Assembly (NCBI GenBank): GCA_964356335.1
Contig: CAYHHI010000013.1
Coordinates: 2,974 to 66,973 of the forward strand
DNA: 64,000 bases
Source: an uncultured bacterium
GTDB taxonomy: Bacteria; Arandabacterota; Arandabacteria; Arandabacterales; Arandabacteraceae
Direction: 5' to 3'
In this document: piece by piece, positions 5,806-39,004 of the stretch
How the letters are laid out: each line of letters starts with the position of its first letter
Position numbering within the stretch: position 1 is the first letter of the stretch
The notes under the pieces: model-generated
What the model was told of the DNA's origin: nothing
Database searches by the model: none
The model's input: the letters and a program-made list of their open reading frames with translations, nothing else
Made by a program: the position numbers and the translations under genes

Positions 5806-6759
5806 TCACATTCTTGTTACGAGTAGTCTCTGCATCCTCCTCTTTTTCATCAGCGTTCGCATTTTTTGAATTGCTCTCTTCTCGATCTGCCTGATTCGCT
5901 CGCGCGTTATCCCGACCATCTTACCTGTTTCGGCGAGCGACCTCAGGTTCCCGTCCTCAAGCCCGAAACGGTAGGCCAGTATCTGCCGTTCTCGCTCGGA
6001 GAGATCATTAAGAAGAGCATCAAGCCGCCTCGAATCTATCCTGCCGAGAGCGTCCTCATCGGGCGGCATGTTTGACTGGTCGGTAAGGACCTCATGGAGG
6101 CTGACCTCACCGTCAGGAGAGCATGGCGAATCAAGTGATACGGTGGACGCGGCATTCGTTATCTCGGCATATCTCACCGCAGAGATGCCTATGCGGCGGC
6201 ATACCTCGGTTTCACACGGCAGGGTGTTTCTCGTCTGTATAAGACTCTGCTCCATGACCCTGACCCTGCGCATGATGTCAATCACGTTCGCGGGCAATCT
6301 CACCGTTCTCGAGTCTGTTGCCAGCGCCTTTGTTATCGCCTGTCTTATCCACTTCGAGGCATAAGTGCTGAATCTGAAGCCCTTCTCATACTTGAAACGC
6401 TCGACAGCCTTTATGAGGCCGAGGTTGCCTTCGCCTATCAAATCAGTAAGCGGCAGGCCCATGCCCCGATATCTCCGTGCAATCGCCACCACAAGCCTCA
6501 GGTTGGCTCCGATCATCTTCTCCTTGGCCATCGGGTCCCCCCTTCTCACGCGCAAAGCGACAACCTGCTCTTCGCCTTTTGTGAAGAGAGGAATCCGGCT
6601 TATGGCTTTAAGGTAAAGAGCCAAGCTCTCCGCTGCCCATTCAGCACCGACACCTGGCGATCGCGTTAGCAAGGATTCATCCTCTGCTTGATATTGCCTC
6701 AGGGAGATCTCGGGATCCTCTTCGTCGATGAAGGGTCGGTCCAACATCGCCTCATCCAT
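5806..6759 (-). CDS. sigma-70 family RNA polymerase sigma factor (group 1/2, RpoS/RpoD-like, 317 aa)
   Basis: Regions 1.2 to 4 recognisable: LRLVVAIARRY, DLIGEGNLGLIKAVERFKYEKGFRFSTYASKWIRQAI, region 4 LSERERQILAYRFGL...ITRERIRQIEKRAIQKMR. Confidence 0.85.
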   Translation of the reverse strand: MDEAMLDRPFIDEEDPEISLRQYQAEDESLLTRSPGVGAEWAAESLALYLKAISRIPLFTKGEEQVVALRVRRGDPMAKEKMIGANLRLVVAIARRYRGMGLPLTDLIGEGNLGLIKAVERFKYEKGFRFSTYASKWIRQAITKALATDSRTVRLPANVIDIMRRVRVMEQSLIQTRNTLPCETEVCRRIGISAVRYAEITNAASTVSLDSPCSPDGEVSLHEVLTDQSNMPPDEDALGRIDSRRLDALLNDLSERERQILAYRFGLEDGNLRSLAETGKMVGITRERIRQIEKRAIQKMRTLMKKRRMQRLLVTRM

Positions 6760-6846
6760 CCTTCGGTGCCCACCCCTGGTTCTGGCCCCGCCTGGAGCCT
6801 CGACCTACAGGAGACGAGGGGCTCACCGTAGTCACTAAGGTAAACC

Positions 6847-6862
6847 GCAAGTTTTGTGCCGG
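6847..6862 (-). promoter_or_regulatory. sigma-54 (-24/-12) promoter candidate upstream of the sigma factor gene
   Basis: The minus strand reads cCGGCAC-aaaac-TTGC (forward GCAA 6847-6850, N5, GTGCC 6856-6860, GG 6861-6862), with GG-N10-GC spacing exact. It lies ~90 nt upstream of the ATG at 6759, in the 314-bp gap between the EBP gene and the sigma factor gene. Confidence 0.5.
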
Positions 6863-10173: not shown

Positions 10174-10500
10174 CTATCTCCGGCCAGCGATCGGCTCGGA
10201 CACAGAAGGAAGCCTCTTCCCCTTAACCGTAGCGCTATTCCTGTACTCTTGCTGTCTCAAGTTCGTCTTGAATACGACGAGGTCAACCACGATTGATTTG
10301 ATGGACGAGATGGTCCCCGGATTGCTCGAAAACGTGGTCGCTGGTCTTGCCCTCTCCCAGATGTCCGGATCACCACCCATAGGGTGCTTCGGCCCTGCTA
10401 CCACCGCACTCGCCCAGACAAAGGCGAAGACGACAGCAAGAGATACAAGCCATATTGCCTTCATAAACCACCGCCTCCGGCTTGAATCCTCACGCTTCAA
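10174..10500 (-). CDS. hypothetical small secreted/membrane protein (108 aa)
   Basis: N-terminal hydrophobic segment (FMKAIWLVSLAVVFAFVWASAVVAG), no recognisable domain. Tightly packed between the dksA-like gene and the EBP gene, so operon context supports it. Confidence 0.4.
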   Translation of the reverse strand: MKREDSSRRRWFMKAIWLVSLAVVFAFVWASAVVAGPKHPMGGDPDIWERARPATTFSSNPGTISSIKSIVVDLVVFKTNLRQQEYRNSATVKGKRLPSVSEPIAGRR

Positions 10501-10524
10501 CTATAATCCATGCGCCCTTTTTTG

Positions 10525-11211
10525 TCAATCCTCAAAAAGGTCATCGGCAGACGGAAGCACAATCTTTCCGGTTGCTTCTTCCTTGGTCTTGCATTTCACG
10601 CAAAGCCTTGCCGAAGGCATAGCTTCAAGCCGCTTCACCCCAATCGGCTTGCCGCACCGCTCACATATGCCATAGGTTCCTTCCTTCAACTTCTCGAGAG
10701 CCGTAGCGATTTCCCTGAGAGCGTTGACACCGGCTTCACTATACTCAAAAGCCTTCTCTTTCTCGACGGAGGCCGAGACAAGATCGCCGACTTCGGCAAA
10801 GCTGGTACGGTCGATTTCCAAGCTATCAGCACGGGCACGCTTGATCTTCTCCAGAACCTCTGCTCCCTTGGTCTCAAGCATAGCCTTCAGCTTCTGTACT
10901 CTGGGTGAAACCACCCTGGCCCGGACCCGTGGCCTTCTGCTTGCGGCAGGGCCCACCCTCTTGGTTGGCGCCCCCCCTTTCCGCACAGTGGCGATCGCGG
11001 GCTTACGAGGCTTACGTCGCGCACCAGTCTTCGCCCCCGGTCTTCTGGGAGCTTTCCTAACGGCTTTCCGGGTAGGCTTCTTAGCCGCTTTCTTGCTGAT
11101 TTTCTTAGGAGTCTTCTTCCTGGCTTTCATCTTAGGTTTTCTCTCGCGCTTACCGGCCGGTCTACGAGTGCGTCCTCGCCGCCTTGCCTTGAGTGTCGTC
11201 CCAGAAGCCAT
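10525..11211 (-). CDS. DksA/TraR-family C4 zinc-finger protein with a ~110-aa lysine/arginine/proline/alanine-rich (histone H1-like) N-terminal tail
   Basis: C-terminal CERCGKPIGVKRLEAMPSARLCVKCK (Cx2C-x17-Cx2C) preceded by a coiled-coil-like region. The N-terminal 113 aa are KARRRGRTRRPAGKRERKPKMKARKKTPKKISKKAAKKPTRKAVRKAPRRPGAK... (>45% K/R). Confidence 0.75.
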   Translation of the reverse strand: MASGTTLKARRRGRTRRPAGKRERKPKMKARKKTPKKISKKAAKKPTRKAVRKAPRRPGAKTGARRKPRKPAIATVRKGGAPTKRVGPAASRRPRVRARVVSPRVQKLKAMLETKGAEVLEKIKRARADSLEIDRTSFAEVGDLVSASVEKEKAFEYSEAGVNALREIATALEKLKEGTYGICERCGKPIGVKRLEAMPSARLCVKCKTKEEATGKIVLPSADDLFED

Positions 11212-11527
11212 ATCCTCCTCAGCCTGTTACTGATCCCTAACTAGGATAGGCATAAGAGGCCTCTACCGCCCTCTGCCCCGCCGCCAACCCGGGGGTAAGC
11301 GGCCAATCCTCCTGCCAAAAACATTGTTAGGATTATCACCATCTTGCTCGGCCCAGTCAAGTGCATTGTCAAGCCCATGGAAATCTCGGCTGTCCCAACT
11401 GCCGAGACCCGGTGGAGAAGAACAACCGGGGAGGCCGTCGCGAGAATCGCTGCCCCACGAGCAATCTGCCGAGCAGCCGCCGAACCGCTTCCATCATAGG
11501 GTGCGATCTCGGGTCATTGACGCCCCG

Positions 11528-13796: not shown

Positions 13797-15848
13797 TCAG
13801 AGCCTACCGAGGACCGCATAAGCTATACCCGAAGCATACGAATTGATTCGCTTGAGATCGCTGATCACGTCAAGATAGACAGTGCTTGTCTCAACCACTT
13901 CTTCCCTGCTTCCCCTGAGAAGCGACAGATGCTCCTTGTGGAGCTGCCGCTCGAGAATATTCATCTCTGACTTGCGCTCGACAACTTCCTCGGCAAGTTT
14001 CCTGTCCTGGGAAGCAAACGAGTCGATCGCCATCTGGAATGTCTTTTCGATCTCGCCGTGGTATTCCCTGATGCGCTGAAGCGCTTCCTTTGAGAATCGC
14101 GGCGATACCATTATCTTCTTCAGGGCCAGATCCATCAGGCTTTTCGAGACTATGTCGCCGATCAGCTCGAGATTCTTTACAGTGAAGAGAAGAGAAACTG
14201 CCCGCTGGGCCTCTTCCTCAGACATCTCCTTGCCCGAAACCTCAGTGAGATAGGGAGTGATAGATTCCTCGAGCATGTCAATCTTGTCATCCTCCTCGAT
14301 CAGTCTCTCTCTAAGAACCTCATTATCATTGAGGAAGACATCGATGGACTTTGAGAAGACACCATAGGTGATGTCAGCCATCCTGAGGGTCTCGCGAGTC
14401 GCTTGGCCTAAGGCGAGTGATGGAGTGTCGAGCACGCGCTGGTCCAGGTATGCGGGCTTGAAGACCTCGACGTCCACCTCCTCCTCTTTGACCAGGAACC
14501 TGAAAAGGCGCCCCCAAGGGGTCATGAACGGAATGAAGAAGAGAGCAGCACCGATGTTGAAAAGGCTGTGGGCATTGGCGATCTGGCGCGTCAAGCTCGG
14601 GGCGGTCGAGGCAACGAAGTTTGTGAATGGCTTAAGGAAAGGAAAGATCAGGATCACTCCGACGATCTTGAAGAAGGTGTGTGCCCACGCGATTCTTTTT
14701 CCCTCGGCATTGCTGTTCACGCTTGCCATCAGCGCAGTCGCGCATGTGCCTAGGTTCGCCCCGAGCACGAGTGGTATGGCGCTCTTCAGGCTTATCACGC
14801 CCTCAAACGCCAGAATCAGCACGAGTCCTATGGTTGCAGCGCTTCCATGGATCAGCGCCGTGAACAATGCTGAGATCACTATGGCAAGCACCGGATTACG
14901 CTCGACGCCAAGCATGAAGTGGACGAAAGCGGGATGGTCCTTGGCGGGTTCGACGGCTGATGACATGATCGTCATGCCGAAGAAAAGCAGGCCGAAGCCC
15001 ATGATTATCTGGCCGAACCTTGAATAGCGTTCGATCTTCGATGAGAAGAGAACAAAACCAAGGGCAACGACCAGGAGTGCATAATCGAAGAGCCTGAAGG
15101 CAATCAGCTGAACTGTCAGAGTTGTGCCGATGTCCGCGCCGAGGATCACGCCGAGCGCCTGCTTAAGCCCGATGATGCCGGCGTTGGCGAAACTTACGAG
15201 CATTGCGGTTGTCGCACTGCTGCTCTGGATTATGACAGTGATGATCACTCCAGTTACGAGTCCCATGAACCTGTTTGAGGTAAGTCTGATCACCGTGTCC
15301 CGCAGTTTCTTACCCGCAGCCTTCTGGAGACCGCGCCCTCCAAATCTGATTCCAAACAGGAAGATGGCAAGCCCGCCGCTTATACCCACGAGCATGAAGA
15401 CGAGCCAGTGCTGCCTGTAGGCCTTGACGGTGAAAACCAGAGGGTTCCCCTGGTGAGATTGCGGCGAGCAGACGACATGGAACACTCCGTTGCGCGAGCC
15501 GAAGACGAGCGAAGTGGAGGCGTTGCCGTCGGAACCTGTCACAACAAGGGGCGTGTCAAGCGTTGGGAAACCCGAGACCATCTCAAGCCTCGTGCTGGCC
15601 TCAATCACCCTGAATTCGACTGTAACGCCGCTCGCGCTCTGGCCCTGCTCGTCCGTAACGTGGACTCTCAAGGGCCGGTGGAGATACTCCCCCGCCAGGC
15701 CGATCTGGCCGTTATTCGAGATGTCTTCCCCATCCATCCCCTTGGCAAAATCGATATGAACCAGGGCTGCGGGAAGGCATGGCGCCGCAGGAAGCCCGAG
15801 GAGTACGAAAACCAAGAGGCCCTGCAAAACCTGTTTTGTCAGTTTCAT
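13797..15848 (-). CDS. Na/Pi-cotransporter II-related protein with C-terminal PhoU-like domains and an extra N-terminal secreted Ig-like/beta-sandwich domain
   Basis: 683 aa: a signal peptide, ~130 aa of beta-rich region (VTVEFRVIEASTRLEMVSG...VFHVVCSP), the NptA-type membrane core (repeated GANLGTC/GADIGTT-like motifs) and PhoU-like helical repeats at the C-terminus. Confidence 0.75.
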   Translation of the reverse strand: MKLTKQVLQGLLVFVLLGLPAAPCLPAALVHIDFAKGMDGEDISNNGQIGLAGEYLHRPLRVHVTDEQGQSASGVTVEFRVIEASTRLEMVSGFPTLDTPLVVTGSDGNASTSLVFGSRNGVFHVVCSPQSHQGNPLVFTVKAYRQHWLVFMLVGISGGLAIFLFGIRFGGRGLQKAAGKKLRDTVIRLTSNRFMGLVTGVIITVIIQSSSATTAMLVSFANAGIIGLKQALGVILGADIGTTLTVQLIAFRLFDYALLVVALGFVLFSSKIERYSRFGQIIMGFGLLFFGMTIMSSAVEPAKDHPAFVHFMLGVERNPVLAIVISALFTALIHGSAATIGLVLILAFEGVISLKSAIPLVLGANLGTCATALMASVNSNAEGKRIAWAHTFFKIVGVILIFPFLKPFTNFVASTAPSLTRQIANAHSLFNIGAALFFIPFMTPWGRLFRFLVKEEEVDVEVFKPAYLDQRVLDTPSLALGQATRETLRMADITYGVFSKSIDVFLNDNEVLRERLIEEDDKIDMLEESITPYLTEVSGKEMSEEEAQRAVSLLFTVKNLELIGDIVSKSLMDLALKKIMVSPRFSKEALQRIREYHGEIEKTFQMAIDSFASQDRKLAEEVVERKSEMNILERQLHKEHLSLLRGSREEVVETSTVYLDVISDLKRINSYASGIAYAVLGRL

Positions 15849-15947
15849 ACGGATCCGCCTCAGTAGTAGCTAGCCCCTAAGGTTAAGTTCCCTGTTTCCA
15901 ATATGTCAACACAAAAGCGCCTCCAGCGCCAATCTTAATAAGTCTCT

Positions 15948-15962
15948 GCAAACTTAGTGCCG
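15948..15962 (-). promoter_or_regulatory. sigma-54 (-24/-12) promoter candidate upstream of the Ig-NptA-PhoU transporter gene
   Basis: The minus strand reads cGGCAC-taagt-TTGCa (forward GCAA 15948-15951, N5, GTGCC 15957-15961), ~100 nt upstream of the ATG at 15848, in a lower-GC divergent intergenic region. Confidence 0.45.
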
Positions 15963-33285: not shown

Positions 33286-36200
33286 TTAGAAGCGGATGAG
33301 GACGGAAACGCTCAGACCAATGGTTCTCCAGGTCTGTTCGAGCTTGCGGTCGGTGGTCTGCTCGAAGCGTGCATCGGCGGAGCCTGTGACGCTGGTGCTG
33401 AAGCTATAGCTTGCTTTGGGACTGATGGTAAATGTCCTCGTGCTGCTGTCTATCCTGTTCTTGAACGAAGGTGTGGTGCCCACACGTGACTCGAAGGACA
33501 AGTCCAGAGATACTGTGAGGCTGCTCTTGAACTTCAATGTCCTGCCAGCGAGCGGGATGTACATGCCTTCCGGAGCGCTGAAGGAATGTCTCAGCGAGAA
33601 GTTAGCGGAATTTGAGACGAACTTCTTCTCGCTTCCAGTACCCTTAGTGTCCTCAGTGGTGTTACTGCTACGCCGGAGATTGAAGGTCGTCCGCACACCG
33701 TTCTTCCACGTTGCATCCCAGCCGATGACCGGCAGCCACTCCGACCGGTGCCCGCGATTGGTCTCTGTGGCACCCACGCCACTCGCCTGCCTCGACCGCT
33801 TGTAGCCCACCGTGATCGAGGAAGTCTTTACGGCTCCCCTGAAAAGCGGCAGATAGACCGTCGAAGAGATGTTGCCGGCAACATCAGGCCAGACGGTTTG
33901 CCTGTCAAAGGTTGTCGCACCGGCATAGGTCCTCGTTTTCTTGTCATGCTTGTACTTGGTGGTCAGGGAAACTGTCTCGACAGGCTTGAATTCCGTGGAA
34001 ACGTCGTAGCCGTCATTCCTCGTGATCTCATCAGTGGGCAGTCCGGCTCCGCCTGACGTTCCTGCGCCCGAGGGCCTCAGGATAGCGTCCTTATCCACCT
34101 GAGGATCTATTCCGAGTTGAAACCTCAAACCCGGCCGTTTCATAAGCTTGTTGTATCTGGAGCTTCTGTCAACGAAGTAGCCGACATCGATATCTGGAAT
34201 CATGGCAAGGACTCGCCTGTAAATGGGCACTCCGGTTGTATCGGCTCCCTTTTGCGGGGCAGACAAGAACGAAGAAGGCTGAAGCAGGAGATCAATGCTC
34301 GACCTGCTTGAGACGGATGCTCGTCTGACCCCTGGCGGATCATTCGCCGAGCGCACGGAAGGATCGGAATTCTCATCATAGTTGACGTCATAACTCACGG
34401 ATGGTTTGAGTATCTTGCCTATGGTAGGCCTCAGGGTGGCACCCGCTCTCTGGTTCCGATTGAGTTCCCATCCCAGACCGACGCTTGACAGTATCGGCAC
34501 CTGCTTGTTTTGATCGAGGTCCCGCATGGTCTTCAGGCTGTAGTCAGTCTCCAGCGAAGGACCGGTGAGAGGTTTGACCGAAATGGCAAAGTTACCTCTG
34601 ATCTCCCTCGTGTACTGGTTTTTCTTCATAATCTTCTGGCGCTTGTCGAACTCCTTTTCGGTCTTTGTCCAACCGGAAACGGCGAAATCCATACCTTCAG
34701 GAAAATAGGATATTGCATAGCCCCTGTAGATTCTCAGTGAATGGTTCCACCAGGGCTTGAAGGCGTAAGCAAGATTCCCATTGTAGCCGTTTGAGGCGGC
34801 ATCCGACTCGGGTGACTTTCCCTGCCTGCGTGCAAAGGACACCCTTCCGGAAAGGGCGTCGAAGGTAAGCTTCATGAGCAGGTTGTTCGATTTCTGCCTC
34901 CGAGAGAAGGCCAGACTGTAGTTGTTATCGACCGACGTTCGCTCCTCTTTTTTTCGCTGCTGCGGCGTCGTAAGAGCGACATCGGACCGGCTGCTCAGAG
35001 TGGGCAACGACCGGGCAGTGTGATAACCCACCGAGAACGGCAGGGACATCCCGAGTGGGGGAAGGAATCTGTCAAGTGAGGTGGATCCTGATAGGGAGAG
35101 ATCGGTATCATCAGATCCTCTTCTGGTGCCCCCGAGGTTCTGAAATTCGGTGTCGGTCTGCTTGAGATCGGCACTGACGCTCATCACATCCGACAAGGCC
35201 GCCCCCACCGAGATTCGCTTTGCAACCCCCATCTCACGGCGCACATCAGTCAGTCTCAGATCATCAAACCAGACTTCAACCGCAGTGTCGCTCGTTGGAG
35301 CTGTCCCGCGGTTCACCACACCCGCGCCGATCCGCGATACCCTCGTTATGGAAGGCTCACCATAGACTGCGATCCAGGTGGCTTCAGTCAGGGGCCTCTC
35401 CCTCCTCAAAACCGGCTTGCCATAGAGGGTGACCGTCGTCGTATCCATGCTTGTCTTGAGGTTGGTTATCTCATCAAGCTTCAACCGGACGTCACTCCAG
35501 CCAGGGGTCACCTTCATGCCGTATTCGTAGAAGTTGATACTGTCCGCACCTATCCTCAGGAAGAAGCTCAGATCTTCAGCGGATGCATTCGGGTCGCCAT
35601 GGACATAAAACGCGAGGGTATGGTAGAGGGTGTAGTCACCGGCATTTCCCGGCAAGGTCTTGTAAACCGACCCGCAGTTTCCCGCTTCGAGGTTCCGGAG
35701 GCCGAATACCAGCGACTGCTCCCGCTTCTTGTAGCCCTCAGGATCTGTACCGGGATCATAGGGTGGATCATAACTCGGGTCATCTCGCGTGTTCTTGGCT
35801 GATATTTCAAAGGACTCTCGGGGAAGCCGCTCGACGCGGGCCATGTCTTCCTTCCTGCGTATTCCCTCCTCGAGCCAACTCGCGCCCGAGATTTGCAGGT
35901 AGGCTAGCTGGAAGACTGAAGGTGTATCGACGCCGGTGAAGAAGAAGCGGACATATCTTATTGATTTCCAGCTGGGCGAGCCGCCGAGCGCGTCCGCATC
36001 GGCCAAAGGAATCATGTAGTGGCACCAATCCCCCGAACGCCCCACAATGTAAGTGGTGTCGGAGAGGTCAAAACCTAGTCTAAAGAGGACCTCGTCTTTG
36101 TCGAGGTTCCCATTACCGTCAATGTCTTCGGTATCGGGTACCAAATTGGGGTCGCCCTCGGTGCCGTTTATGTGGGAGTAGTCTCCTTCACTGTAAGACC

Positions 36201-38940
36201 AGTTGTCCTCATACTCCACCTGGTCGTCGCCTGGCTGGCCATCGGGTATGCCGTCAAGTCCCGTGTTCTCGTCTTCACTCAGCTTGCCGTCACTATCCTT
36301 GTCCTCGGTGTTAAGCGTGTCGGCCCAGGGATGGTAGAAGTTCTCGCTCACGGCACCAAGGTCAACGTACATCTTCCCCCTGTGGCCCTCCTTCTTCCTG
36401 AGCCAGACTTCGAGAAACCTGAGATCCGAGTAATCGCTTCCGGTCTTTGACACAAGCCGCTCAAGCCCCGACCACTGCTTGGCTGTGTCAGGATCCGGAG
36501 CAACCCAGCCATATGCGAACTTCCTGAAGTTGATTTCAAGAACCGGAATGAAGGCTTCCCCTGGACGGGACTCCGCCTCTGGGAAGAGATCCTGCTCCTT
36601 GACTTCCCTGTCCTTGACGTACCACCAGATCTTGCGGTTGTCCCTGTAGTAGAAATCTGTCGGGGGACTTGCGGGCACCCAGGCTTCCCGGATCAGCGAA
36701 AAAGACCTCAAGTCCCTCACTCCTTCCATATCATCTATGTAGACATCACGCTTGGTATTGGGATTGGGAAAACTTGCCGCCACTTCGGCTGAGATTGACA
36801 GTCTTGAGGGGCTTTGTGCCTGGACCATGGGAAGCGCATTGGTGATCGCGGTCATCCACTTCGGCTGGAATTCCAGCCGCGTATTGACGTCGCCGACCAT
36901 GATCTGAGAAGGTTCCTGGCCCAGCCTGGGCCGTTCCTCGGGGGATTTCTTGCTCTGGTAGATCCAGGCCGTACTCAAGTAGGACTGTTCCGAGAACTTG
37001 TAGGTGCCCTGGATGCCCAAAAGAGATTGCTGGGCTAAAGCGAGGAAGGGCACATATTGGTAATCTACGGTTATCTGTGCATCGGGACTCGCCGCTTCGT
37101 CGATCTTGAATCTTATCTGCCCCACGTCATAATAGATCTCATAGTCAACATTGCGCGTGAGCCGCCTTCCGTTGAGCGTTACGGTCTCGCTTCCCTCAAG
37201 GATATTGACATTGTTCAACTTGAATATGGTCTGCGGGGTGGAGAACCAGACCACCATATAGTACTTGCTGTTCTCGGGCTTGAGCTTCCTGGGATGAATG
37301 TCGTAAATATCGGGGTTTCCATCATCGAGAGTCTCCGGTCTGGCATCCATCAGCTGTATGTCGGGATCGAAGGGCCTGAGGTCTGGAAACAGGAGCAGCC
37401 CCAGCTCGCCGTTTACGGTTCCGCCGTCGGCATACCCGTCCGTGCGCCAGCCGTTTGCCGGGCTCGCTTTCACATTGCTCTCATCCTCAAGGTCTATCCC
37501 GAGAACCTTCGAATACTCATACTGCCGCTGGACGTCCTTGACATCTCCGCCCGGGTCCTTGCGGTAAATCTTCACCAAGACCTTCCCCTCGGAGACGTAG
37601 CTCGCGCCGAGCGAATAGACGTTCTTGCGCTCATACCTGAGGGTACCGCCCCAGAGTCCCTCCTTTTCTATCATGTCCGTCTCGGTCGGGCGTATCATCT
37701 TCAGCAAGCGCACGTTCTTGTCACCATACCCACCATACCCGCCCACCACCATGTCGCCCCACTTGTAAGTGACAGCCAGCGTATGCGCGGCATCGAGGGC
37801 TCTGAGGAGCGAGATCTCACCGGTACGCTGGTCTATCGCATAGTCTCTGTTACGCTCAAGGATGTCGAAGAAGCCGTGATAGGTCGAGTCCGCCCAGCCG
37901 GCGGAATCCGATGGCACCCTGTCAGGATCAAGCAAAGCATAAGCCTCGACCGCACCCTCACCGATGTTGTTATTGCCGTTGCCGTCATCCAGGTAAACTT
38001 CGACCTCGGTGACTTCAGGGCAGGGCTCGGGCGCAATCTTGCGGCAGTATTCAAGCCTCTCATAGGGATCAATCATGAAGAAGTATTTGTTCTTGACAAA
38101 GTCCATGTCTGAGAGTCTTACCGAATCTCGCTCAGCCGCTCCCACGAATCGCGCCCCGGCAGTTCTGCCTTCCTGCTTGCTGGCGATCACGGTCATATCC
38201 ATGGCCCCTAGCTTAGCAAGCACCTTGGCTCCGAAAAGACCCTGGTGCTGTTCGCTGTAGCCCACAAACTGGGAACCCGGCATGGACAGGTTGGTATTAC
38301 CCATTTCCACACTCTGCACGATCTCGTCGTCATCGCCCTTGTAATTGAGCTTTATGCGGTTCTCAAGGGGTGTTTCGACATCGCTATCGTGATGAACCAG
38401 TACGTTTATTTTCTCGCCCACGGTTCCCTTGAGGTCTATCCTGAGATGCTGCTTCATATTGAGCTGAGGAAACTTAGATGGTCTTCCGTATTCGGTCAAA
38501 GGTTGATTTACCCTGTATCTTGTCTGGCCGCCGAAGGTGATCTGTTCGCTGCCGGTGACGCTCAAGTTTGCTCCCTGCCCGATCACTCGGCCTATGGTCT
38601 TGGGGAACTTGACCGGTATGTCTATGCTGCTGAAGTCTCGAAGGGACATCGCATGTTCCTCAAAGACCCTGCCCGAGCCGGCTTTGATCCAATTCTCCCT
38701 GAGAGCGCCGTTGAAATCCTGCTCAAGCACCGGCTTCTGCATGAATTCGGGGAAGGCGAACCGCGGGCCGAGATTTGTACCGCTCGAAGGAAACCTGAGC
38801 GAGACTTCCGATGTGGGGCCGGCCGAGAGGCTGTCAGAGGACGTTCCGAAGCCAAGGGAGTCAGCGCCCTCGGAGACGCTTACGTATCCGAAGACCAGAA
38901 GCCCAAAGATTATGGCCCAGTAACCATCATGTGCTCTCAT
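33286..38940 (-). CDS. giant (1884 aa) secreted outer-membrane protein with Asp-rich Ca-binding-like repeats and a C-terminal beta-barrel; possibly SprA/Sov-like (T9SS translocon family), unverified
   Basis: Signal peptide MRAHDGYWAIIFGLLVFGYVSVSEGA; Asp/Gly-rich segment DKDSDGKLSEDENTGLDGIPDGQPGDDQ...DIDGNGNLDKDE; alternating beta-strand-like C-terminal ~600 aa ending ...GLSVSVLIRF (terminal Phe, OMP signature). One uninterrupted ORF. Confidence 0.8.
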   Translation of the reverse strand: MRAHDGYWAIIFGLLVFGYVSVSEGADSLGFGTSSDSLSAGPTSEVSLRFPSSGTNLGPRFAFPEFMQKPVLEQDFNGALRENWIKAGSGRVFEEHAMSLRDFSSIDIPVKFPKTIGRVIGQGANLSVTGSEQITFGGQTRYRVNQPLTEYGRPSKFPQLNMKQHLRIDLKGTVGEKINVLVHHDSDVETPLENRIKLNYKGDDDEIVQSVEMGNTNLSMPGSQFVGYSEQHQGLFGAKVLAKLGAMDMTVIASKQEGRTAGARFVGAAERDSVRLSDMDFVKNKYFFMIDPYERLEYCRKIAPEPCPEVTEVEVYLDDGNGNNNIGEGAVEAYALLDPDRVPSDSAGWADSTYHGFFDILERNRDYAIDQRTGEISLLRALDAAHTLAVTYKWGDMVVGGYGGYGDKNVRLLKMIRPTETDMIEKEGLWGGTLRYERKNVYSLGASYVSEGKVLVKIYRKDPGGDVKDVQRQYEYSKVLGIDLEDESNVKASPANGWRTDGYADGGTVNGELGLLLFPDLRPFDPDIQLMDARPETLDDGNPDIYDIHPRKLKPENSKYYMVVWFSTPQTIFKLNNVNILEGSETVTLNGRRLTRNVDYEIYYDVGQIRFKIDEAASPDAQITVDYQYVPFLALAQQSLLGIQGTYKFSEQSYLSTAWIYQSKKSPEERPRLGQEPSQIMVGDVNTRLEFQPKWMTAITNALPMVQAQSPSRLSISAEVAASFPNPNTKRDVYIDDMEGVRDLRSFSLIREAWVPASPPTDFYYRDNRKIWWYVKDREVKEQDLFPEAESRPGEAFIPVLEINFRKFAYGWVAPDPDTAKQWSGLERLVSKTGSDYSDLRFLEVWLRKKEGHRGKMYVDLGAVSENFYHPWADTLNTEDKDSDGKLSEDENTGLDGIPDGQPGDDQVEYEDNWSYSEGDYSHINGTEGDPNLVPDTEDIDGNGNLDKDEVLFRLGFDLSDTTYIVGRSGDWCHYMIPLADADALGGSPSWKSIRYVRFFFTGVDTPSVFQLAYLQISGASWLEEGIRRKEDMARVERLPRESFEISAKNTRDDPSYDPPYDPGTDPEGYKKREQSLVFGLRNLEAGNCGSVYKTLPGNAGDYTLYHTLAFYVHGDPNASAEDLSFFLRIGADSINFYEYGMKVTPGWSDVRLKLDEITNLKTSMDTTTVTLYGKPVLRRERPLTEATWIAVYGEPSITRVSRIGAGVVNRGTAPTSDTAVEVWFDDLRLTDVRREMGVAKRISVGAALSDVMSVSADLKQTDTEFQNLGGTRRGSDDTDLSLSGSTSLDRFLPPLGMSLPFSVGYHTARSLPTLSSRSDVALTTPQQRKKEERTSVDNNYSLAFSRRQKSNNLLMKLTFDALSGRVSFARRQGKSPESDAASNGYNGNLAYAFKPWWNHSLRIYRGYAISYFPEGMDFAVSGWTKTEKEFDKRQKIMKKNQYTREIRGNFAISVKPLTGPSLETDYSLKTMRDLDQNKQVPILSSVGLGWELNRNQRAGATLRPTIGKILKPSVSYDVNYDENSDPSVRSANDPPGVRRASVSSRSSIDLLLQPSSFLSAPQKGADTTGVPIYRRVLAMIPDIDVGYFVDRSSRYNKLMKRPGLRFQLGIDPQVDKDAILRPSGAGTSGGAGLPTDEITRNDGYDVSTEFKPVETVSLTTKYKHDKKTRTYAGATTFDRQTVWPDVAGNISSTVYLPLFRGAVKTSSITVGYKRSRQASGVGATETNRGHRSEWLPVIGWDATWKNGVRTTFNLRRSSNTTEDTKGTGSEKKFVSNSANFSLRHSFSAPEGMYIPLAGRTLKFKSSLTVSLDLSFESRVGTTPSFKNRIDSSTRTFTISPKASYSFSTSVTGSADARFEQTTDRKLEQTWRTIGLSVSVLIRF

Positions 38941-38989
38941 CGATTGAGTCTTTCAACCAATATACTAAGCCCCGCAGACCCCAGCAAGG

Positions 38990-39004
38990 GCAACTTTTGT
39001 GCCA
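38990..39004 (-). promoter_or_regulatory. sigma-54 (-24/-12) promoter upstream of the giant OMP gene
   Basis: The minus strand reads TGGCAC-aaaag-TTGC, a perfect consensus (forward GCAA 38990-38993, N5, GTGCCA 38999-39004), ~50 nt upstream of the ATG at 38940. It shares 13/14 nt (GCAAnTTTTGTGCC) with the site at 6847-6860. Confidence 0.55.

Follow-up and report, generated by a model that had tools for sequence, protein, structure and literature searches.

The fusion of a DksA-like module to a histone-like tail has been characterized in Streptomyces coelicolor. DdbA (SCO2075) of this species begins with a basic, H1-like N-terminal domain of 93 residues and continues with a DksA-like C-terminal domain (Aldridge 2013, Nucleic Acids Res 41:4813; PMC3643593). 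In electrophoretic mobility shift assays, full-length DdbA and its N-terminal domain were shown to retard plasmid DNA while the C-terminal domain did not, and the protein binds and condenses DNA via its tail (PMC3643593). Mutation of ddbA alters both the condensation of the nucleoid and the way in which supercoiling responds to osmotic stress, and overexpression of DdbA suppresses a relA phenotype (PMC3643593). Its authors detected DdbA orthologues in streptomycetes only (PMC3643593). Here we describe a gene of the same architecture in a stretch of 64,000 nucleotides (the window) from an uncultured bacterium of the GTDB lineage Arandabacterota (GenBank assembly GCA_964356335.1, contig CAYHHI010000013.1, positions 2,974 to 66,973 of the forward strand). 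The gene product is a DksA/TraR-fold protein with a translated polybasic N-terminal tail. The architecture being already known from Streptomyces DdbA, the gene does not represent a new type of system; it is an uncharacterised example of a known one in an uncultured phylum. The DdbA design has scarcely been followed up; in the searched literature, just three papers name it alongside DksA.

The window protein and DdbA share the order of their parts, with a basic low-complexity N-terminus of ~90-140 aa followed by a DksA-like coiled-coil and a C4 zinc finger, and tail length varies between orthologues in both families. The differences are found at several levels. DdbA belongs to the Actinomycetota, whereas the present family comes from Candidatus Eisenbacteria and unclassified metagenome-assembled genomes (MAGs). 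With the Streptomyces DdbA-like proteins P0110 and P0106 serving as stand-ins for SCO2075, the window protein is 33% identical to P0110, which is no nearer than its identity to tail-less DksA/TraR proteins; outside the family, P0121 and P0124 stand nearest to it. The tail is rich in Lys, Arg, Pro and Thr, holds one TPKK (aa 34-37) and one KAAKK, and contains neither a repeated pentapeptide nor (S/T)(A/T)AKK repeats, whereas the tail of DdbA is rich in Ala and Lys. The coiled-coil tip reads ExxDxV here, while DdbA retains both Asp residues. The genes differ in their surroundings as well: DdbA is encoded in the ftsZ region, whereas the gene in the window lies among trkH, a small open reading frame (ORF), a sigma-54 enhancer-binding protein (EBP) gene and a sigma factor gene, and no synteny with the ftsZ region was found among the neighbouring genes examined. 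The window protein is an analogue of DdbA and not its orthologue, and the fusion probably arose independently of DdbA.

A second parallel is offered by myxobacterial CarD, in which a module that interacts with RNA polymerase (RNAP) is likewise joined to a basic low-complexity, eukaryotic-chromatin-like DNA-binding region. In some CarD orthologues this region may be H1-like instead of HMGA-like. The HMGA-type C-terminal DNA-binding domain of CarD is reportedly functionally equivalent to histone H1-like domains, as the title of a 2009 PNAS paper by Garcia-Heras et al. has it. The RNAP-interacting fold of CarD is unrelated to that of DksA, however, and its basic region is C-terminal. This fold, CarD_TRCF, is described as an RNAP-interacting protein family (abstract of PMC2919716).

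The original prediction, which was drawn from the window's letters and ORF list, described a DksA/TraR zinc-finger protein with a polybasic tail at 10525-11211. The reading frame, of 228 residues with an ATG start, agrees with this description, and the peptide that was cited for the tail (KKTPKKISKKAAKKPTRKAVRKAPRRPGAK) is found there. The tail (aa 1-104) contains 24 Arg, 20 Lys, 16 Ala, 12 Pro and a single acidic residue, which amounts to 42.3% K+R, 1% D+E and a net charge of +43. It is by a wide margin the most basic 100-residue stretch in all six frames of the window, the runner-up having 33 K+R together with 18 acidic residues. A Lys/Arg content above 45% had been given for the first 113 residues. 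The strongly basic character stands, while the figure is slightly too high (40.7% for aa 1-113; 45 of 100 in the best 100-residue segment). A resemblance to H1, Hc1 and AlgP tails had also been proposed, and it holds for composition but not for detectable homology. Searched alone against Pfam at E<=1, the tail matched no family, HC2 included; the tail of a Streptomyces DdbA-like protein, by contrast, weakly matches HC2. Because of this, the terms histone-like and H1-like refer to composition only. Low complexity rich in Lys, Arg, Ala and Pro and predicted disorder are shared with chlamydial Hc1/Hc2, with Pseudomonas aeruginosa AlgP and with the C-terminal tail of Streptomyces HupS. The window tail differs from these in showing no detectable homology to them, in using Arg as often as Lys, and in being an appendage on an RNAP-factor fold rather than a stand-alone nucleoid protein.

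The remainder of the protein adopts the DksA/TraR fold. Pfam PF01258 (zf-dskA_traR) matches aa 178-212 with 53 bits against a cut-off of 24.9. The NCBIfam DksA-like, YteA and DksA models cover aa 105-212, every one of them with a score under its curated cut-off (77/105, 77/134 and 65.6/115.5 bits). The cut-offs of the DksA equivalogs TIGR02420, NF033459 and NF008045 were likewise not reached (77 vs 105, 65.6 vs 115.5 and 44.7 vs 289 bits). An AlphaFold2 (AF2) model built from a 39-sequence alignment leaves residues 1-102 without secondary structure, at a predicted local distance difference test score (pLDDT) of ~50. In the domain, where pLDDT is ~90, helices 103-136 and 146-177 form a hairpin that is followed by the zinc ribbon and two short helices. 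The top Protein Data Bank (PDB) matches in Foldseek, all with probability 1.00 and template modelling (TM) scores of 0.5-0.68 relative to the target, were P. aeruginosa DksA2 (4ijj), E. coli DksA free and on RNAP (1tjl, 7khi and 5vsw) and Chlamydia Dks (6ptg). A sequence search of the PDB returned the same DksA and DksA2 proteins plus TraR. All sequences of the 39-sequence alignment share the four Cys residues of the zinc finger (C183, C186, C204 and C207). At the opposite end from the tail, the proteins of the window's subclade terminate in a conserved acidic motif, ...P(S/P)AD-x-x-FED-COOH, whereas other subclades end otherwise; this motif could contact RNAP or fold back onto the basic tail.

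Basic tails are a regular feature of the family. A full-length search recovered ~92 homologues at E<1e-36, and in nearly all of them the N-terminus is extended by 65-140 aa that contain 30-48% K+R and 0-5% D+E. Lys and Arg are exchanged between family members while the charge is retained. The named sources of these homologues are few and are either Candidatus Eisenbacteria or unclassified 'bacterium' MAGs. To avoid bias from tail composition, the domain was also searched on its own against 1.84 billion cluster representatives. This returned just three family representatives at E<1e-30, followed by P0121 (116 aa, 51% identity) and then by a generic DksA/TraR continuum. Among the next 147 representatives, ~20 (~14%, or about one in seven) have Lys/Ala/Pro-rich N-terminal tails of at least 60 aa, a proportion that is probably a lower bound because the label 'tail-less' is unreliable for metagenomic proteins, given their start calls and truncation. 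The tailed representatives form several groups, whose similarity to one another does not exceed their similarity to tail-less proteins. P0103 and P0107 are bona fide DksA of the proteobacterial type, with the E. coli-like tip FPDPNDRATQEEEF and K-rich N-terminal tails of ~120 aa, so the histone-like tail is not restricted to divergent DksA/TraR paralogues. The comparison with homologues that the original prediction had recommended as a measure of the tail's spread finds it in nearly all members of one family and in several groups beyond it. A second, canonical dksA, which it had also suggested looking for, was not found within the 64-kb window.

The design is therefore recurrent: it occurs in a conserved clade of Candidatus Eisenbacteria and related uncultured bacteria, in proteobacterial-type DksA, and in a minority of diverse DksA/TraR representatives. 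This recurrence suggests that DNA tethering of factors of the RNAP channel is a general strategy worth testing and not the oddity of one lineage.

The residues through which DksA and TraR act on RNAP are partly retained. In E. coli DksA, substitutions of D74 or A76 abolish function, and A76 sits in a bridge-helix cavity (bioRxiv 10.1101/188680). TraR homologues likewise need the motif DxxDxA (PMC9239242). The counterpart of this tip in the window protein can be placed without gaps, since 40 residues lead from D143 to the first Cys just as they do from D74 to C114 in E. coli DksA, and the alignment with DksA2 agrees. The tip reads ExxDxV in 92 of the 93 family members; in the 39-sequence alignment E140 and D143 are invariant and V145 is at least 90% conserved. 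The nearest outgroups P0121 and P0124 also have ExxDxV, while most other DksA/TraR matches have DxxDxA. Conservation of the tip Asp residues, another check that had been proposed, is thus borne out as acidity at both positions (E140 and D143) but not as the DxxDxA motif. DksA R125, the equivalent of TraR R48, makes the rim-helix contact (PMC9239242). Its counterpart R194 is invariant in all 93 members; K208, which corresponds to DksA K139, is invariant as well.

Site 2 for guanosine tetraphosphate (ppGpp) in E. coli DksA is formed by R91, K94, L95, K98, R129 and K139 (bioRxiv 10.1101/188680). The corresponding residues here are A160, N163, A164, E167, M198 and K208, so that five of the six are not conserved and only K139 is kept. 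In sum, the protein resembles E. coli DksA and F-plasmid TraR in its fold, the length of its coiled-coil, an acid at both tip positions, the rim-helix Arg, the Lys at K139 and the C4 ribbon. It differs from them by its 104-aa polybasic tail, its tip, its site-2 residues and its scores under the DksA equivalog cut-offs. The module retains the RNAP-docking features and an acidic tip but not the E. coli ppGpp pocket, and has a bulkier residue at the A76 position. The description of a standard DksA/TraR C4 finger with a coiled-coil is accordingly right about the DksA/TraR fold and too broad in the word standard. With its ExxDxV tip and no ppGpp site, the Eisenbacteria clade offers a natural variant for probing what the tail contributes.

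The translation of the tail was examined as well. The original prediction singled out a true start downstream of the basic region as what would overturn its proposal; the tail would then be an untranslated leader, with translation from Met111, the only plausible internal start. Met111 is indeed conserved in at least 90% of homologues, and gene callers at times picked internal starts, as in P0019 (128 aa) and P0001 (201 aa). The comparison was extended to 16 loci, namely the window, 14 species-level loci from genome collections and one metagenome locus. In 16 of 16, an open frame runs into the domain from upstream and matches its register. Tail lengths of 75, 77, 79, 84, 86, 87, 88, 97, 100, 104, 106, 142 and 177 codons occur among these loci, and as the frame is kept throughout, many indels must have taken place, all of them multiples of three. 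Two tails were lengthened by in-frame tandem repeats that encode RKTARKVTRKPAKKTA-like units (L004, 5954..6185, 48 nt or 16 aa x 4.8; L005, 224..446, 36 nt or 12 aa x ~5); the window's own tail contains no tandem DNA repeats. A Shine-Dalgarno (SD) sequence (GAGGGGGAG or AGGAGG) stands at the homologous place in most other loci, where the start lies five codons past the stop of the upstream gene, and the arrangement in the window (TAA ... GAGGAGG AT ATG) is homologous. No consistent SD was found ahead of Met111 across the loci, and this position is Ile in L005 and L011. Tail differences at codon positions 1, 2 and 3 number 15, 16 and 34 between L002 and L015 and 22, 17 and 36 between L004 and L008, in counts from protein-level alignments, which somewhat favour a third-position excess. 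The domain is far more constrained in close pairs (3, 3 and 26). Of the short family members (128-155 aa), which were considered as naturally tail-less forms, P0019 proved to be a gene-calling artefact, since a basic tail is encoded in frame in the DNA ahead of it.

Two details sit less easily with a start at 11211: the spacing from SD to ATG in the window is short, at 2 nt, and P0001, a public protein that is nearly identical, has its annotated start at Met28. If Met28 is the alternative start, a tail of 77 residues would remain. An ORF of 169 aa is also open on the opposite strand (10724..11233, plus strand). It was rejected as a real gene, being the expected mirror image of AAG/AAA-rich Lys codons and overlapping the strongly conserved DksA domain. 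A start at Met111 does not fit the surviving frame, the upstream position of SD and start, the Ile replacements and the codon pattern, and was discarded on this comparative evidence; we regard it and a genuine antisense gene together as extremely improbable. On the comparative reading of these loci, the tail belongs to the protein.

The protein is probably a bifunctional factor of the DdbA type, in which a disordered polycationic tail ties a secondary-channel module to DNA or concentrates it there. By homology to DksA and TraR, the C-terminal 124 residues would dock on the beta' rim helices and the tip would enter the RNAP secondary channel. The tail of ~104 residues, counted from the ATG at 11211 or possibly shortened to begin at Met28, would most likely bind DNA electrostatically and without sequence specificity, like the H1-like N-terminal domain of DdbA. 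When bound to DNA, it could enrich the nucleoid in the RNAP-binding module or allow DNA contact near the polymerase. Since the E. coli ppGpp-binding residues are mostly absent, the factor probably acts without ppGpp, like TraR, or via other contacts. Tethering of a secondary-channel factor to the nucleoid or DNA was the central idea of the original prediction, and by analogy it is plausible, DdbA being the experimental precedent (PMC3643593).

Several points weigh against this reading. No homology of the tail to H1, Hc1/Hc2 or DdbA was detected, and the domain is only distantly related to that of the DdbA-like protein, so that the function is assigned by analogy. Other ligands that polybasic tails can bind are RNA, polyphosphate and acidic membranes. 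The tail could thus be real and yet have another polyanion as its main ligand (polyphosphate granules, rRNA, nascent RNA or ribosomes), to which the protein would be localised or by which it would be regulated. A tail that conserves only charge and has no sequence-specific motif cannot by itself tell polyanions apart, and the H1-like AlgP of P. aeruginosa has been tied to the organisation of polyphosphate granules (PMC9239181). We consider such a ligand unlikely, because DdbA, the sole experimentally studied protein of this architecture, uses its tail on DNA, and because the DksA-fold partner acts on RNA polymerase, which is itself on DNA. A further difficulty is the Val at the position of the functionally critical Ala76, with which the tip may function in another way or be inactive. 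Together with the scores under the NCBIfam DksA cut-offs and the lost ppGpp site-2 residues, the variant tip would suit a protein that is mainly nucleoid-associated and whose DksA-like module no longer enters the secondary channel, serving for example in zinc/redox sensing or oligomerisation. Over ~93 diverged sequences, however, E140, D143, R194 and the four Cys are invariant and V145 is kept in all but one, and the coiled-coil is as long as that of E. coli DksA. Conservation at the places where DksA and TraR contact RNAP argues for a conserved, specific interaction surface, which makes the loss of the channel function quite unlikely.

The tethered-factor reading can be carried further. Given a fusion that arose independently of DdbA in an uncultured phylum, the protein might act as an ionic-strength-sensitive switch, in which intracellular K+ tunes the hold of the tail on DNA and hence the amount of factor that is free for the secondary channel. 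The idea comes from the location of the gene: it adjoins trkH, which when intact ends 15 nt ahead of the start of the tailed DksA gene in 10 of the 16 loci, and it sits just upstream of a sigma-54 activator that would drive an RpoS/RpoD-like sigma factor gene. If this is true, global promoter kinetics would respond directly, and without ppGpp, to osmotic or K+ status, but we regard the idea as a long shot. The coordinates of the gene, its parts and its surroundings are collected in the table.

Table. Features of the tailed DksA/TraR-family gene and of its neighbourhood in the window.
Feature	Position	Strand	Description	Basis
Tailed DksA/TraR-family coding sequence	10525..11211	-	228 aa + TGA stop, ATG start	ORF list, sequence
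N-terminal polybasic tail	10900..11211	-	aa 1-104, predicted disordered	Composition, AF2
DksA/TraR-fold domain	10528..10899	-	aa 105-228: coiled-coil hairpin, C4 zinc ribbon, C-terminal helices	Pfam, NCBIfam, PDB matches, AF2, Foldseek
Coiled-coil tip E140-V-G-D143-L-V145	10777..10794	-	Counterpart of E. coli DksA D71-x-x-D74-x-A76	
C4 zinc finger C183-x2-C186...C204-x2-C207	10591..10665	-	CxxC-x17-CxxC	Pfam, alignment
Acidic C-terminus	10528..10560	-	aa 218-228	
Shine-Dalgarno-like GAGGAGG	11214..11220	-	2 nt before ATG at 11211	Sequence
Sigma-70-type promoter-like TTGACT-17-GATAAT	11332..11360	-	~120 nt upstream of start, within trkH 3' relic	Consensus scan
Sigma-70-type promoter-like TTGACA-17-TATAGT	10500..10528	-	-35 overlaps TGA stop	11/12 consensus matches
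Decayed TrkH-family K+ transporter relic	11240..11497	-		Comparison with intact TrkH of L006 (588 aa)
96-aa ORF	10174..10464	-	Between DksA-like gene and EBP	
Sigma-54-type promoter cGGCAC-AAAAC-TTGCg	6846..6861	-	Between EBP stop and RpoS/RpoD-like sigma-70-family gene	
RpoS/RpoD-like sigma-70-family gene	5806..6759			
Sigma-54-like site, one mismatch	15947..15962	-	Upstream of Na/Pi-cotransporter-PhoU gene	
Na/Pi-cotransporter-PhoU gene	13797..15848			
Sigma-54-like site, one mismatch	38989..39004	-	Upstream of 1884-aa ORF	
1884-aa ORF	33286..38940			

The gene order around the tailed DksA gene is NaPi/PhoU transporter, asparaginyl-tRNA synthetase (AsnRS), pyruvoyl arginine decarboxylase, (TrkH), tailed DksA, 96-aa protein, TPR-GAF sigma-54 EBP and RpoS/RpoD-like sigma factor, and it is conserved over the loci as far as contigs extend. 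This synteny takes in unrelated housekeeping genes (AsnRS, arginine decarboxylase and the Na/Pi transporter); it therefore reflects relatedness as much as function and is by itself no proof of a functional link. As evidence for an operon it was downgraded, owing to these housekeeping genes and to a conserved internal promoter. That promoter-like element, TTGACA-17-TATAGT, is conserved in every one of the 15 loci examined, including those with a shifted stop codon. Its conserved position between the tailed DksA gene and the genes downstream indicates that the small ORF and the EBP have a promoter of their own. No terminator was found in the gap between the tailed DksA gene and the downstream genes, and read-through may add to the expression of the small ORF and the EBP. 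The gene had been said to head the operon containing the sigma-54 EBP. Its upstream position and possible read-through agree with this, whereas the separate conserved promoter does not.

The tailed DksA gene likely has its own promoter in TTGACT-17-GATAAT, judging from the conservation of the element with its 17-nt spacing in all 13 loci that have this stretch. The TTGACT hexamer uses rare codons of the TrkH frame, TTG (11% of Leu) and ACT (17% of Thr). The element resembles a promoter situated inside the 3' end of trkH and preserved when the gene decayed. Intact trkH next to the tailed DksA gene is read as the ancestral arrangement. In the window, aa 522-557 of the L006 TrkH are matched at 11423..11316, aa 556-582 at 11320..11240 in another frame and, weakly, aa 8-25 at 11497..11444, a pattern that implies an internal deletion of ~1.5 kb and a frameshift.

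The 96-aa ORF downstream has a signal-peptide-like N-terminus (MKAIWLVSLAVVFAFVWASAVVAGPKHP...) and its own ribosome-binding site (GGAGGCGG). It is found in at least eight related loci, and no match to it was obtained in Pfam or NCBIfam. Scans of the window with Rfam models and for tRNAs gave no matches.

Before the tailed DksA gene, no sigma-54 promoter was found within two mismatches of TGGCAC-N5-TTGCW, and a candidate picked by eye (TGGCAGGAGGATTGGC) was rejected with three. The two further sites with one mismatch each that are listed in the table belong to a total of sigma-54-like sites in the window that is not above chance. The sigma-54-type promoter that follows the EBP gene is conserved in 10 of 11 loci and suggests a cascade leading from the EBP, via this promoter, to the alternative sigma factor.

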